The notes under the pieces were generated by a model. It did no database searches. It had not been told where the DNA came from and saw nothing but the letters and a program-made list of their open reading frames with translations. A stretch of DNA of 64,000 nucleotides, from positions 24,578 through 88,577 of the forward strand of contig CAJUGJ010000013.1 of assembly GCA_910586015.1 (NCBI GenBank), in the 5' to 3' direction. The position numbers were made by a program, and so were the translations under genes. Below, in pieces: positions 3,444 to 61,953 of this stretch (within the stretch, counting starts at the first letter, position 1; each line of letters begins with the position of its first letter). The stretch is from an uncultured Lachnospiraceae bacterium. GTDB taxonomy: Bacteria; Bacillota; Clostridia; Lachnospirales; Lachnospiraceae.

Positions 3444-4025
3444 ATGGGAAAAATTAAAGTAACACAAGATTGTAATGGAATTCGAGGTTTAAAAATAATA
3501 GAACCAGAAATATTTTTTGATGAACGGGGTTATTTTATGGAAACTTATCAGGCAGAAGAATTTAAAAAGGTAGGAATTTCTGATACTTTTGTCCAAGATA
3601 ATCAGTCGGCTTCAAAAAGGGGAGTATTGAGAGGACTTCATTTTCAGATTCGATATCCTCAGGATAAATTAGTAAGAGTAATTCGGGGAGAAGTTTTGGA
3701 TGTTGCAGTTGATTTAAGAGAGGATTCCGAAACATTTGGTTCGTGGTTTGGTGTAGTATTATCTGAAGAGAATAGAAAACAATTCTTTATTCCAAAAGGA
3801 TTTGCCCATGGATTTTTAGTTCTTTCAGAACAGGCAGAATTTTGTTATAAAGTGACTGATTTTTATCATCCAAATGATGAAGGCGGAATTTTATGGAATG
3901 ACAGAGAACTTGGAATTGATTGGTTTGGAACAAAAAAGATAAGCGAAAAAGATATTATTCTTTCGGAAAAAGATAAAAGATGGGAAAGCTTTCAGCTATA
4001 TAAAGAACAAAGAAAAAGGAGCTAG
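3444..4025 (+). CDS. rfbC: dTDP-4-dehydrorhamnose 3,5-epimerase
   Basis: RmlC cupin motifs (FxDxRGxF, VLRGLHFQ, GFAHGF). Confidence 0.9.
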   Translation: MGKIKVTQDCNGIRGLKIIEPEIFFDERGYFMETYQAEEFKKVGISDTFVQDNQSASKRGVLRGLHFQIRYPQDKLVRVIRGEVLDVAVDLREDSETFGSWFGVVLSEENRKQFFIPKGFAHGFLVLSEQAEFCYKVTDFYHPNDEGGILWNDRELGIDWFGTKKISEKDIILSEKDKRWESFQLYKEQRKRS

Positions 4026-6288: not shown

Positions 6289-7773
6289 ATGAAATCTATT
6301 TGGAGTGAAACAATACAGATGCCTAAATATCCTTCTCTTTCTGGAAACTGTTTTACAAAAACAGCTATCATTGGAGGAGGAATAACAGGAATCTTAATTT
6401 CCTACTTTTTAAATGAGGCAGGAGAGGAAAATGTTATCTTAGAGGCAAATGAAATTGCAGGCGGACAGACAAAAAATACAACAGCAAAAGTAACTTCTCA
6501 ACATGGTCTGATTTATTCAAAGCTATTAACTCAAATTGGAAAAGAAAAAACAAGTCAATATGCAAAAGCCAATCAAAATGCAGTTTTAGAATATGAAAAA
6601 TTAATTCGGACAAAAGGAATTTCCTGCGATTGGGAGAGGATTCCTTCTTATTTATATTCATGCAGAGATGTTGTATTGTTAAAGAAAGAAGAACAGGCAG
6701 CAAAAGAAGCAGGCTTAAACGTATCTTTTACAACAAATACAAAGCTGCCCTTTCCTGTTCGTTCTGCTTTAAAACAGGAAAATCAGGCACAGTTTCACCC
6801 CTTAAAATTTCTTATAGGTCTTTTAAACGAAATGACTATCTATGAACATACAAAAGTGGAAAAGATTGAAAATGCAAAAAATGGACTTTATTTACTTTAT
6901 ACTTCAAAAGGAATGGTTACTGCAAAAAGAGTTATTTTTGCCTCACATTATCCATTTATTAATGTACCGGGATATTATTTTTTAAGGATGCACCAAGAAC
7001 GAAGTTATTGTATGGCATTTCGTAATGCACAAATGTTAGATGGAATGTATTATGGAATTGATCCAGATGGATTGTCGTTTCGAAATACAGAAGAATATTT
7101 GATTTTAGGAGGAAGCGGTCATAGAACTGGTGAAAATAGAAAGGGTAAAAATTATGAAAGGCTTAAAAAAGCGGTAGCAGAATTTTATCCTAAAGCAAAA
7201 GAACAAACAGCTTGGTCAGCACAAGATTGTATGCCTTTAGATAATATTCCTTATATTGGAAGGTTTTCCAAAGCAAAGACAAACTGGTATGTAGCTACAG
7301 GATTTCAAAAGTGGGGAATGACCAGTTCAATGGTAGCAGCACAATTAATCTGTGATTTAATTATAGGAAAAAAGAATGAGTATGAAACTCTTTTTTCTCC
7401 ACAGAGAGTTCCAACTCTTTTTTCTATTCCGCAGATTTTAGACGAGGGAAAACATACGTTTAAAGGACTTGGAAGGCGTTTATTTCTATTTCCAAGACAA
7501 CAGGCAGAACAAATTCCTGTAGGACAGGGAAAAGTAATAGAGTATCGAGGAGAAAAGTTAGGAGTGTATAAAGAAAAAAATGGGACAATCCATGCAGTTT
7601 CTGTGAAATGTCCACATTTGGGATGTGAACTTAACTGGAATCCAGAGGAACTTAGTTGGGATTGTCCTTGTCATGGTTCGAGATTTACATTTGATGGACA
7701 TTTAATGGATGAACCTGCACAAAGCAATTTAAAGAGAAAAAAATCTTTTAAAAATAGTTTTCTTTCAGAATAG
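6289..7773 (+). CDS. FAD-dependent oxidoreductase with C-terminal Rieske [2Fe-2S] domain (YhfW-like)
   Basis: N-terminal IIGGGITG dinucleotide fold. C-terminal CPHLGC...CPCHGS Rieske motif. Confidence 0.8.
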   Translation: MKSIWSETIQMPKYPSLSGNCFTKTAIIGGGITGILISYFLNEAGEENVILEANEIAGGQTKNTTAKVTSQHGLIYSKLLTQIGKEKTSQYAKANQNAVLEYEKLIRTKGISCDWERIPSYLYSCRDVVLLKKEEQAAKEAGLNVSFTTNTKLPFPVRSALKQENQAQFHPLKFLIGLLNEMTIYEHTKVEKIENAKNGLYLLYTSKGMVTAKRVIFASHYPFINVPGYYFLRMHQERSYCMAFRNAQMLDGMYYGIDPDGLSFRNTEEYLILGGSGHRTGENRKGKNYERLKKAVAEFYPKAKEQTAWSAQDCMPLDNIPYIGRFSKAKTNWYVATGFQKWGMTSSMVAAQLICDLIIGKKNEYETLFSPQRVPTLFSIPQILDEGKHTFKGLGRRLFLFPRQQAEQIPVGQGKVIEYRGEKLGVYKEKNGTIHAVSVKCPHLGCELNWNPEELSWDCPCHGSRFTFDGHLMDEPAQSNLKRKKSFKNSFLSE

Positions 7774-12879: not shown

Positions 12880-14736
12880 ATGCAGGAAGTGAAATCACCA
12901 AAAAAACCGATACTATATTATTACTTAATTGCATTTTTAGTTTTAATGATTTTAAATGCAGTGCTGTTTCCAAAATTGATGACAAAACGAGTAACAGAGG
13001 TAGATTATGGAACTTTTCTTTCTATGCTCGATTCAAATGAAATTGCACAAGTACAGATTGAAGAAAATCAGATTATTTTTTCAGATCGTCAAACGCCTAC
13101 AAATTATTATAAGACAGGCATCTTAAATGATCCAGCATTAGTAGATCGGCTGTATAAAGCAGGAGTTACTTCGTTTGGAACTCCAATTGTAGAAGAGATG
13201 TCACCATTACTGAGTTTTATTTTAACTTGGATTTTGCCAATCGTTATTATGGTAGTTGTTGGACAGCTTTTAATGCGAAGTATGACAAAAAGAATGGGCG
13301 GCATGGGAAATGCAATGTCGTTTGGAAAAAGTAATGCTAAAGTTTATGTGCAATCTACGAGTGGTATTAAGTTTGCAGATGTTGCCGGTGAAGATGAAGC
13401 AAAGGAAGTATTACAAGAAATTGTAGATTTCCTACACAATCCCCAAAAATATTCTGAAATTGGAGCAAAAATGCCAAAAGGTGCACTTTTAGTTGGTCCA
13501 CCCGGAACTGGAAAAACACTGCTTGCTAAAGCGGTTGCAGGGGAATCCAATGTTCCTTTCTTTTCAATTTCTGGTTCTGAATTTGTAGAGATGTTTGTTG
13601 GTATGGGTGCAGCGAAAGTTAGAGATCTGTTTCAGCAGGCGAATGAAAAAGCACCTTGTATTGTTTTTATTGATGAGATCGATACTATTGGAAAAAAGCG
13701 TGATGGCAGTGGAATGGCAGGAAATGATGAAAGAGAACAAACATTAAATCAACTTTTAACTGAGATGGACGGCTTTGATGGGACAAAAGGAGTTATTATT
13801 TTAGCTGCCTCGAATCGACCAGAATCATTAGATCCCGCACTGCTTCGTCCGGGAAGATTTGATCGTAGAGTTCCCGTAGAACTTCCAGATTTAATGGGAA
13901 GAGAAGCAATTTTAAAGGTACATGCAAAAGAAATTAAAATTAGTGATGGAGTAGATTTTTCTGTAATAGCCAGAGCAGCAGCAGGGGCGTCAGGAGCAGA
14001 ACTTGCCAATATGATCAATGAGGCGGCATTACGTGCTGTAAGAGACGGAAGAAAATTTGTGACACAGGCAGATTTAGAAGAGAGTGTGGAAGTAGTTATT
14101 GCAGGTTATCAAAAAAAGAATAAAGTGCTTTCGGATAAGGAAAAGCTAATTGTGGCATATCATGAAGTGGGACACGCTTTAGTTGCAGCATTACAGACTC
14201 ATTCTGCACCAGTGACAAAGATTACAATTATTCCAAGAACATCAGGAGCGTTAGGATATACCATGCAAGTAGAAGAAGGAGAACATAACCTGATGACAAA
14301 GGAAGAGATTGAAAATAAGATTGCCACACTGACAGGAGGAAGAGTAGCAGAAGAACTGATTTTTAATTCTATTACAACTGGAGCATCCAATGATATTGAA
14401 CAGGCAACTCGTCTTGCACGTTCTATGGTTACTAGATTTGGTATGAGTGAAGATTTTGGAATGGTAGCACTAGAAACAATAACAAATCAATATCTTGGAG
14501 GAGATACTTCCCTAGCCTGTTCAAATGAAACGGCTTCTTTGATCGATCAAAAAGTGGTTTCGTTAGTAAAGAAACAGTATGAAAAAGCAAAAGATCTGCT
14601 TGTAGAAAATAAAGCGAAATTACATGAACTTGCAAAACATTTATATGATCAGGAAACAATTACAGGTGAAGAATTTATGGAAATTCTTCAAAGAAAGCCT
14701 ATACCAGAAGCAATAGAGGAAAAGACAGAAGATTGA
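12880..14736 (+). CDS. ftsH: ATP-dependent zinc metalloprotease FtsH
   Basis: Two N-terminal TMs, AAA Walker [12 protein letters not shown], and HEVGHA zinc motif. Confidence 0.95.
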
Positions 14737-14827
14737 AATTTTTAGTCTACAAGTTTGTGTCTGTGCGACATTCACAAACTTGTTATATACAATATAAATA
14801 TAAAAGTCGCACAGAGATGAGGAAAAA
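14730..14827 (+). promoter_or_regulatory. Conserved intergenic element, copy A (interleaved inverted repeats ending at the mnmA SD)
   Basis: Arms A 14750-14759 / A' 14773-14782 and B 14760-14769 / B' 14806-14815. A near-identical copy lies at 61861-61953. Confidence 0.5.
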
Positions 14828-59634: not shown

Positions 59635-59690
59635 GAAAGAAGGCTGTATCAATATGCAGTATGTATGTTGATACAGCTTCTTTCATTTAA
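59635..59690 (+). terminator. Strong rho-independent terminator after tpiA
   Basis: 17-bp stem GAAAGAAGGCTGTATCAA / TTGATACAGCTTCTTTC (59635-59652 / 59668-59684) followed by ATTTAAT. Confidence 0.7.
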
Positions 59691-59721
59691 TATTGTAAGA
59701 AAATGGAGAACTTATAGAAAA

Positions 59722-60216
59722 ATGAAATTTACTTTTTGTCCTGACTGTGGAGAAAGATTAATCAAAAAAGAAATTGGCGATGAAGGGCTTATGAATTATT
59801 GTAAGAACTGTCAAAAACCAATATTTGATCTATTTAGTACCTGTATTATCACCCTTATATTAAATGAGGAAGGACAAGTAGCATTACTTCGGCAAAATTA
59901 TATATCAAAAGAGTTTTATTGTCTTGTAGCAGGATATATTAAATCAGGAGAAACAGCAGAAGAAACTACTTTTAGGGAAACAGAAGAGGAATTAGGAATA
60001 AAGCTACTTCATACCAAATTTTTAAAAAGTTATTATTATCAAAAAAAAGATATGTTGATGTTAGCATTTATTTCAAAAGCAGCTTCAAATGAGTTTCGTC
60101 TTTCTAAAGAAGTAGATGCCGCAGAATGGATTCCTATTTTACAAGCAAAAAAGTTATTGAGAGAAGGTAGCATTGCAAAGCAAGTTGTACTTGATTATTT
60201 AGCAAATTTGTGTTAA
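59722..60216 (+). CDS. NUDIX hydrolase with N-terminal zinc ribbon (NudC-like architecture)
   Basis: CPDCGERL...CKNC zinc ribbon and Nudix box GYIKSGETAEETTFRETEEELGI. Start ATG 59722 lies downstream of the terminator (the ORF opens at 59665). Confidence 0.75.
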   Translation: MKFTFCPDCGERLIKKEIGDEGLMNYCKNCQKPIFDLFSTCIITLILNEEGQVALLRQNYISKEFYCLVAGYIKSGETAEETTFRETEEELGIKLLHTKFLKSYYYQKKDMLMLAFISKAASNEFRLSKEVDAAEWIPILQAKKLLREGSIAKQVVLDYLANLC

Positions 60217-61796: not shown

Positions 61797-61860
61797 GATT
61801 TTACTTGAAAAGTGATGTAGTTTATGGTAAAATATCGAAAGCGTTGTTTTAGAAGGTATA

Positions 61861-61953
61861 AGATTGAAAATTAAAGTTTTTAATCTGCGAGTTTGTGTCT
61901 GTGCGACATCCACAAACTTGTTATAGATAAGTCGCACAGAAATGAGGAAAGAA
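61861..61953 (+). promoter_or_regulatory. Conserved intergenic element, copy B (interleaved inverted repeats ending at the secG SD)
   Basis: Arms A 61888-61897 / A' 61911-61920 and B 61898-61907 / B' 61931-61940. Near-identical to 14730-14827. Confidence 0.5.

Follow-up and report, generated by a model that had tools for sequence, protein, structure and literature searches.

Among described bacterial repeats, the closest in kind to the element reported here are the Neisseria repeat REP2 (CREN) and the IR-A/IR-B repeats of Borrelia plasmids. These are dispersed repeats of about 100-150 bp whose origin and mode of spread are unknown (Delihas 2011, PMC3184786). We analyzed a stretch of 64,000 nucleotides, in the following called the window, from an uncultured Lachnospiraceae bacterium of low GC content (33%) which is found in metagenomes only (GenBank assembly GCA_910586015.1, contig CAJUGJ010000013.1, positions 24,578 to 88,577 of the forward strand). 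The window contains two copies of a short non-coding element, copy A between ftsH and mnmA and copy B, about 47 kb away, upstream of secG. Set beside REP2 and the Borrelia repeats as described in PMC3184786, the element shares with them two inverted repeats that are internal, with none at the termini, predicted RNA stem–loops, a ribosome binding site (RBS) beside the start codon, and a position immediately 5′ of open reading frames (ORFs) in gene orientation. REP2, which belongs to a different phylum, carries a promoter and the ATG, and its genes are co-regulated on host-cell contact (PMC3184786). In contrast, the element has no conserved promoter, copy B relying on the host secG promoter, and its downstream genes are unrelated. 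Between different phyla, sequence homology to REP2 is not to be expected. Interleaved instead of consecutive repeats, filled and empty alleles, a duplicated host Shine–Dalgarno sequence (SD) and 5′-truncated copies are features of the element that are not described for REP2 in that paper. We conclude that the two segments are very probably copies of a small non-coding, non-autonomous mobile repeat of several Lachnospiraceae which inserts between the SD and the ATG of genes.

The copies are built from a hairpin H1, two pairs of complementary boxes in the order A-B-A′-B′ and a 3′ tail with an SD. Positions are those of the window; family 2 denotes the copies of Gallintestinimicrobium propionicum treated below.

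14716..14729, plus strand: purine-rich, SD-like left flank of copy A, GAGGAAAAGACAGA, within the 3′ end of ftsH; probably the insertion's target side, or "old SD" side
14730..14748, plus strand: hairpin H1 of copy A, arms 14730-14737 and 14741-14748 by folding program
14750..14782, plus strand: helix A of copy A including its loop; kept in all variants, 95% of cells paired
14750-14759, plus strand: box A of copy A, CAAGTTTGTG, read from the sequence
14760-14769, plus strand: box B of copy A, TCTGTGCGAC; sits with AUU in the loop of helix A
14773-14782, plus strand: box A′ of copy A, CACAAACTTG; pairs with A (14750-14759)
14783..14805, plus strand: AT-rich linker of copy A, 23 nt; not constant, with 10 nt in copy B and hairpin C, rich in GC, in family 2
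14806-14815, plus strand: box B′ of copy A, GTCGCACAGA; perfect complement of B, compensatory changes across variants
14816..14827, plus strand: 3′ tail of copy A, GATGAGGAAAAA, with the working SD GAGGA at 14819-14823; the ATG of mnmA (14828) is next
61805..61833, plus strand: promoter-like site of secG, TTGAAA-17-TAAAAT with an upstream TG; kept in relatives, not part of the element
61851..61856, plus strand: original SD of secG, decayed, AGAAGG against AGGAGG in relatives
61860..61886, plus strand: start of copy B, AAGATTG (61860-61866), and its hairpin H1 (61861-61871 / 61876-61886)
61888..61920, plus strand: helix A of copy B (61888-61897 / 61911-61920, one G.U), with box B (61898-61907) in the loop
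61931..61953, plus strand: box B′ of copy B (61931-61940) and tail AATGAGGAAAGAA with the SD GAGG at 61944-61947; the ATG of secG (61954) follows

A first-pass annotation, made from the window alone, had already described the boxes of copy A, and every position and sequence that it gave for them is correct. It had further noted a second copy upstream of secG with a different A′-B′ linker (23 vs. 10 nt). This copy is confirmed at 61860-61953, in the same orientation and with the same box order; apart from the linker it differs from copy A by one A-to-G change, through which one A-U pair in stem A becomes G-U, and by one loop change. A proximal stem of five pairs (AGATT 14730-14734 / AGTCT 14744-14748) is also present as described, with the ftsH stop codon inside; folding extends it to eight pairs. 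The ORF of ftsH ends at 14736 with its TGA (14734-14736) in H1. Judged by the boundary seen at filled and empty sites of G. propionicum, copy A proper begins at GATTG 14731, and the GAGGAAAA of its left flank is found again in its right tail. With blastn the two copies match with E = 8e-14 (49-nt core) and E = 7e-5 (22-nt 3′ block), box B has four exact occurrences in the window where 1.0 is expected with up to one mismatch, and the folding z-scores of the sense strands are -3.3 and -3.0. Thus, the duplicated element is beyond chance. A third copy was not found in the 64-kb window when the copies were used as blastn queries.

The insertion can be read directly upstream of secG. Relatives from three lineages, whose SecG is 82-87% identical, have no element in this region. 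The gpmI-secG spacer of the two closest ones (85-87%) has the promoter CTTGAAw-17-TAAAAT followed by AAAGCGGCrTTTTAGGAGGTGTAnnnATGGCAGC, so that AGGAGG is separated by 7 nt from the ATG. In the window the same promoter is followed by TTTTAGAAGGTATAAG, about 90 nt and ATGGCAGC. Since the relatives share the promoter and lack the 90 nt, copy B is an insertion between the old SD and the secG ATG; since the promoter is kept, copy B lies in the 5′ untranslated region (UTR) of secG. The new SD is at the 3′ end of copy B. The true start of secG is ATG 61954, which gives a protein of 79 amino acids as in nearly all close homologues. Gene callers use the in-frame ATG 61942 instead, which belongs to the tail of copy B, and arrive at a SecG of 83 amino acids, four residues too long.

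The element is not restricted to the window species. In a distant BLAST search of a phage collection, copy B retrieved nine faecal scaffolds labelled "UNVERIFIED Bacteriophage sp.", and a second search with one such copy retrieved 18. The proteins encoded on these scaffolds match exactly those of G. propionicum, a human-gut Lachnospiraceae of about 50% GC. The scaffolds are therefore fragments of bacterial chromosomes and not phage. As a note on the database entries themselves, GenBank MT836138-MT839492 (L079-L087 and L093-L101) encode housekeeping proteins identical to those of G. propionicum. The copies of this species (family 2, consensus AAGATTGAAAAATAAAATTTTTCAATCGCGAGATTTGTGTCTGCGCGCACTTGACACAAACTCGGCATGCGCAAAAAGCGTGCGCAGAAATGAGAGGAAAAnATG) are about 75% identical to the window copies and are found at about 20 further loci. 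A search with nhmmer of 735 kb of partly redundant sequence gave 66 hits, which represent 16 distinct full-length loci and additional truncated ones. Variants of the element are also present in two other Lachnospiraceae. The third variant of the family (family 3; L132, GC 43%, from IMG/VR) stands before another P-type ATPase gene.

All copies, which are non-coding and about 60-105 nt in size, are co-oriented with a long ORF and end 0-10 nt 5′ of its ATG. At about 24 loci the downstream genes are functionally unrelated. They code for Fur, a P-type ATPase, an M42 peptidase, an RlmI-like methyltransferase, an ACT protein, CobW, DnaB, an ABC binding protein, thioredoxin, EcfA, NaPRTase, MarR, a prepilin peptidase, and others. 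Partial copies are only 5′-truncated, all retain the 3′ end, and the truncation points recur at helix boundaries. It had been considered earlier that the element might be a high-copy repeat resembling miniature inverted-repeat transposable elements (MITEs), present in both orientations and unrelated to gene starts. A multi-copy repeat it is indeed, but a strictly co-oriented one which abuts gene starts.

Other searches gave little. The pattern search for B...B′ in other genomes, that is, the scan of the genome collection for TCTGTGCGAC-N(10-40)-GTCGCACAGA, returned 46 stretches, only one of which is related: L029, a secG orthologue in a metagenome-assembled genome of the Lachnospiraceae. All others are unrelated high-GC palindromes. 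As an observation of its own, high-GC repeats with the same 10-nt termini TCTGTGCGAC...GTCGCACAGA occur in L013, L019, L020, L026, L028 and L055 and in L036, L040, L049 and L051. Arthrobacter/Pseudarthrobacter have 58-nt near-perfect palindromes with these termini and Mycobacterium sp. OTB74 has palindromes of about 40 nt flanked by GCCCGCC/GGCGGGC, both unrelated to the element. A metagenome scan for TCTGTGCGACATYCACAAAC found two matches, both by chance and inside coding sequence. Three scans of viral contigs gave 0, 1 and 2 true matches; four further matches of one of these scans are a single unrelated phage sequence. The plasmid BLAST gave no match, and nhmmer detected no further copies, whether in the window, in 9.5 kb past the window's left end or in the roughly 100 kb of sequence that came from the closest relatives. 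Word searches of the literature yielded no account of a repeat that targets the SD in Firmicutes or Lachnospiraceae, which is not proof of absence.

Direct evidence for insertion comes from G. propionicum. Among the loci fetched for four proteins, four sites carry the element in only part of the strains and are empty in the rest, which shows recent mobility. At the ACT site the empty allele is CTGTGAGAGGAGAAAAGCATG and the filled allele CTGTG-AGAGGAGAAA-GATTG...GCGCGGAAA-AGAGGAGAAA-AGCATG; the duplicated AGAGGAGAAA is 10 nt long and contains the host SD. The empty Fur site reads ...CACAGGGGGAGAAAAATGG, and the filled one has ...CATAGGGAAAGAA before GATTG on the left and CAGAAAT before GGGAGAAAAATGG on the right, with an H1-less variant at the same position in strain L120. 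The ATPase site is GGAGTGGAGAAAAAATG when empty; when filled, it has GGAGTGGAGATAA before GATTG and, on the right, the consensus tail GAGCGGAAAAA and then ATG. The methyltransferase site likewise changes from CGAAATGAGGAATAAAAATATG to CAAAATGAAGAATAAA before GATTG and CAGAAATGAGAGGAAAATATG on the right. At these last two sites the right side is the consensus tail, and only the A-run is ambiguous. Separately from the element, the region upstream of fur (about 3900-3990) has a 48-nt indel (GGTT...GTGGTT). It occurs in L113, L118, L119 and L120, where the site is empty or the copy lacks H1; strains that carry a full-length element (L112 and others) do not have it.

The junctions follow a common scheme. 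On the left there is always the host SD, an A-run and GATTG, and in nearly all members of the family an SD-like run stands directly 5′ of the element. On the right the element's SD-like tail blends into the host SD and A-run, in register with them. The tail form AATGAG(A/C)GGAAAA is kept in the family and linked to core variants; a GAGCGG tail travels with the core variant A68 at five loci. Because of this co-inheritance the tail must be regarded as part of the element. Left flanks resemble their own right tails more than they do in shuffled pairings (permutation p = 0.006), and the old SDs often carry disabling G-to-A changes. The element has the 5′ ends GATTGAAAAAT / CGAGATTTGTG and the 3′ end GCGCAGAAATGAG. 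No terminal inverted repeats are present, the ends GATTGAAAAAT... and ...GCGCAGAAA(TGAGAGGAAAA) not being complementary. Two simple explanations of the junctions were discarded. Conservative site-specific recombination at an SD-like core is ruled out by the host-specific GAGGAGAAA at both ACT junctions, and an origin of the downstream SD purely from target-site duplication is rejected as a general rule by the tail variants which are inherited with core variants.

A multi-copy, strain-polymorphic element thus described occupies the gap between SD and ATG in one orientation, integrated 0-5 nt 5′ of the start codon, and leaves a working SD. The original SD is stranded on the 5′ side, and the gene stays translatable via the 3′ SD. 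The latter is either the SD-like tail of the element itself (AAATGAGAGGAAAA) or a duplicated host SD merged in register with this tail. The purine-rich SD regions appear to be targeted as such, and selection after insertion would not be the sole cause of the distribution.

Several groups of repeats share part of this behaviour. The classical MITEs (Correia/NEMIS, ERIC, RUP, BOX) are, like the element, non-coding, smaller than 200 bp and multi-copy, they have target duplications, are co-transcribed with neighbouring genes and form stable RNA stem–loops, and their mobility was also read from filled and empty sites (Delihas 2008, PMC2229807). Unlike them, the element has no terminal inverted repeats and no TA target, it is always found at a start codon in one orientation, and its duplication is variable in length and contains the SD. 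YPAL/RU-2 of Yersinia is similar in its internal inverted repeats, in duplications of 3-26 bp and in the empty/filled evidence, and like family 2 it is not AT-rich; it differs in that it targets dyad symmetry, is translated together with genes upstream of it and has no link to SD or start codon (PMC2229807).

For the history of copy A, the comparison is with relatives whose MnmA is 83% and 74% identical. They carry a CmpB-like gene (PF06541) between ftsH and mnmA, and the element is absent in front of their mnmA (regions compared: 5487-6447 of L057 and 1918-3001 of L135 against 14737-14827 of the window). In the window tblastn did not detect the CmpB-like gene. In the 74% relative (L135) a motif search revealed a 5′-truncated copy, GGCGCAAAAAGCAGCGCAGAAATGGGG, at the ftsH-cmpB junction directly 5′ of the cmpB ATG. 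The ftsH gene of this relative ends in ...ACAGAA TAA and that of the window in ...ACAGAA GATTGA; the stop codon of ftsH is therefore now supplied by the element. The 5′ end of the element has stops in two of the three frames, and it is one of these which terminates FtsH. By this comparison the CmpB-like gene is lost in the window lineage, and the insertion of copy A seems to have gone along with this loss. Recombination between two copies of the element or a deletion associated with the insertion may have removed the gene.

We then have to ask what the conserved helices stand for. The paired state of the helices was scored in an alignment of 25 sequences (A2). H1, an optional AU-rich hairpin which is missing in some copies, is 92% paired with one compensatory change from A-U to C-G, and helix A is 95% paired. 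B/B′ has nine conserved pairs, about 98% paired, three of which covary. Its position 5 is U-A, U.G or C-G, position 8 is G-C or G.U, and position 9 is A-U or C-G, with G-C in L132, where B/B′ is a perfect 10-bp helix (TCTGCGCGGC/GCCGCGCAGA). Thus the arms, for which non-compensatory substitutions had been named as the damaging outcome, change in a compensatory manner in three diverged variants in the case of B/B′, and A/A′ shows A-U, G.U or G-C at one position (position 2 of helix A). Family 2 shows 21 wobble states and one compensated state vs. seven mismatches in helices A and B; counted as unique states these are 12 wobble vs. two A.C. Unpaired positions do not show this bias, a control on small numbers. 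G.U is kept and A.C is not, and the constraint therefore applies to the sense strand in single-stranded form, be it RNA or DNA. As far as the alignment tells, A/A′ and B/B′ are both maintained by selection on the sense strand. They would act in the mRNA or in a mobilization intermediate.

Box B directly abuts box A (0 nt) in the window copies and in L132 and overlaps it by 2 nt in family 2; it occupies the loop of helix A, and stem 2 has 9-10 bp. For this geometric reason the full A and B helices should exclude each other. The first-pass annotation had left the choice between an H-type pseudoknot and a switch of two helices. Two real and maintained helices which are mutually exclusive are the better description, and the pseudoknot is disfavoured by the 0-nt linker from A to B and the 2-nt overlap. 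Family 2 has in its linker an additional weak hairpin C that competes for B′. In the predicted folds the SD is mostly unpaired, with P of about 0.6 for the window type and mostly 0.8-0.99 for family 2, so the mRNA fold would leave the new SD largely accessible.

Such a pair of alternative covarying helices upstream of an SD is what riboswitches have, and the strongest rival explanation is a cis-regulatory RNA switch in which A/A′ and B/B′ would govern how the mRNA is translated or how stable it is, depending on a signal, the repeat being a regulatory module that spread, as proposed for REP2/CREN. The maintenance and covariation of both helices, the changes tolerated as G.U on the sense strand only, and the mutual exclusion fit this explanation. 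The B helix moreover extends by weak pairs into AAUGAG beside the SD, where a U-to-C change in L029 turns one G.U into G-C, and every copy is, judged by its position, transcribed with a gene start. However, the genes downstream share no function, the same gene has the element in some strains and lacks it in others, and the SD core is predicted to be mostly unpaired in both states, the favoured state varying by variant, so that the SD is not clearly gated. There is no conserved unpaired core resembling a ligand pocket, and the linker is not conserved. Rfam gave no relevant match at gathering or permissive thresholds (best overlap 21 bits against a threshold of 48.7 bits, on the opposite strand), in agreement with the earlier statement that no named riboswitch or leader is recognizable. 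A leader or riboswitch serving mnmA and secG specifically, as first envisaged, fails on its absence at the orthologous loci (secG in three lineages, mnmA in the 83% and 74% relatives), on the insertion itself, on the roughly 20 unrelated genes and on the presence and absence among strains. In our view the switch is an unlikely explanation of the element. A switch function is possible as an added role and is not supported as the reason for the presence at mnmA and secG.

How does the mobile repeat reach its target? We suggest, with low confidence, the following steps. The SD-like, A-rich 3′ tail could anneal to the complementary strand of the target and prime copying. Copying might, speculatively, be akin to target-primed reverse transcription or proceed by template switching. 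Tail-primed copying would explain why junctions are in register, duplications vary, terminal inverted repeats are missing and truncations affect the 5′ end only. The element would then be retroposon-like, similar to short interspersed nuclear elements (SINEs), or annealing-primed, the pairing of its tail with the complementary strand of the RBS would make initiation regions the programmed target, and the A and B helices would serve for enzyme recognition. As an analogy of mechanism only, SINEs and target-primed reverse transcription offer small, structured, non-autonomous elements with an A-rich, target-like 3′ tail, variable duplications, no terminal inverted repeats and 5′-only truncation, and an insertion-associated deletion of their kind could have happened at copy A. 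Unlike in SINEs, the truncation points lie at helix boundaries and are not random, and no reverse transcriptase is linked to the element. To our knowledge no element with SINE-type retroposition is known in bacteria. As a complete scheme we consider this rather improbable.

Another conceivable route is mobilization as single-stranded DNA by an IS200/IS605-type HUH (Y1) transposase in the manner of REP/REPIN or PATE elements. The hairpins would be the recognition sites, and the duplication would only be apparent as the right end mimics the target. REP/BIME (RAYT) and IS200/IS605-derived elements are likewise hairpin-based, strand-specific and devoid of terminal inverted repeats, and the element has hairpins near both ends, stems that tolerate G.T on one strand and a left flank always ending in an A-run, as does the element itself. 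Some G. propionicum loci contain a TnpB-like gene (Cas12f1-like_TNB). REPs, on the other hand, are 20-40 nt long and, in either orientation, mostly found between genes or at 3′ ends. IS200/IS605 elements insert 3′ of a fixed target of 4-5 nt and do not duplicate it. Host-specific bases stand in the right-hand SD of the ACT and Fur sites, which means that host sequence was truly duplicated, and in this the element is unlike REP/RAYT and IS200/IS605. Further, the left and right hairpins are not alike, and no TnpA was seen adjoining any copy. We therefore judge this route to be improbable as well.

A single local event (ectopic gene conversion, for example, or the duplication of a 5′ UTR onto another gene) would do without a mobile family. 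It could be argued from the window species alone, where only two copies in the same orientation lie 47 kb apart in about 75 kb and no polymorphism within the species is seen. The same architecture at about 20 loci of another genus, and again in two additional lineages, together with strain-level presence and absence and target duplication elsewhere in the family, makes a local event very improbable.

The operator or promoter cassette at the DNA level, which had been offered as an alternative with B and B′ as half-sites of a dimeric regulator around an extended -10 box, can draw on the perfect 10-nt inverted repeats, on TGTTATATA between B and B′ in the window copies and on a perfect TTGACA inside A′ in family 2, but it is the least credible of all, as the -10-like box lies in the non-conserved linker and is lost in families 2 and 3, where unrelated GC-rich sequence replaces the linker, as the gap that separates B from B′ (36, 23 and about 40 nt in different copies) is not helically phased, as a consensus scan gave one weak 9-of-12 match in copy A (GCGACA-17-TACAAT) that is not kept in copy B, which has none, and as a site in duplex DNA would not distinguish the G.U that is kept on one strand from the A.C that is not. 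Among the element variants no promoter or terminator site is consistent and no -35/-10 pair is conserved.

Some observations weigh against a mobile repeat that targets the SD-ATG gap. The window species has two known copies in about 75 kb, both invariant in 20 conspecific metagenome contigs, with no direct sign of current mobility. In the loci and contigs examined, none of the candidate kinds of enzyme (transposase, HUH nuclease, recombinase, reverse transcriptase) could be linked with the element. A clear duplication of about 10 nt is seen at two of the four filled/empty sites (ACT and Fur), and in principle the empty alleles could be deletions between flanking direct repeats. Selection after insertion could be partly responsible for the confinement to gene starts, and the excess of G.U-compatible states might in part come from a C-to-T bias on the sense strand. 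Finally, the predicted dominant fold is H1 with B/B′ in the window type and H1 with A and C in family 2; by these predictions no single RNA conformation is conserved as ground state.

Mobile elements usually avoid or destroy translation-initiation regions. The element described here, in contrast, inserts between SD and ATG and keeps a working SD. In an abundant human gut commensal it has created natural pairs of alleles, the same gene with and without a structured leader of about 100 nt. The junctions, with the SD duplicated, the tail in register, no terminal inverted repeats and 5′ truncations, bear on how RBS-carrying repeats such as REP2 proliferate. The element can be mistaken for a riboswitch in comparative screens and it leads to mis-annotated start codons, as seen with SecG. 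Possibly the members of the ACT-protein cluster with 110-128 instead of the true 90 amino acids are N-terminally extended calls of this kind.

A few minor observations concern the element and its surroundings. Both window copies keep a minus-strand ORF of nine codons without SD (14784-14760, MSHRHKLVD*, in copy A; 61922-61898, MSHRHKLAD*, in copy B), which is probably fortuitous. After the old SD the 5′ end of the element reads ATT GAA AAA TAA in family 2 (e.g., L081, 124-140) and ATT GAA AAT TAA in copy B (61863-61874), and from the sequence a three-codon mini-ORF with the rare start AUU is possible inside H1. Further upstream of secG, a NUDIX hydrolase gene (59665-60216) lies between tpiA and gpmI in the window species at a place where relatives (L069-L072 and L076) have a non-coding spacer. 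In two G. propionicum strains (L112 and L116, about 7195-7360) we found an insertion of 161 bp with terminal inverted repeats ACAGTTCAC...GTGAACTGT between the genes of an ABC-3 permease and a DUF6110 protein. It is absent from eight other strains and represents a different, classical MITE-like element. A related motif, GAACAGTTAC, stands just upstream of two copies of our element (L087, about 2800; L097, about 4410).

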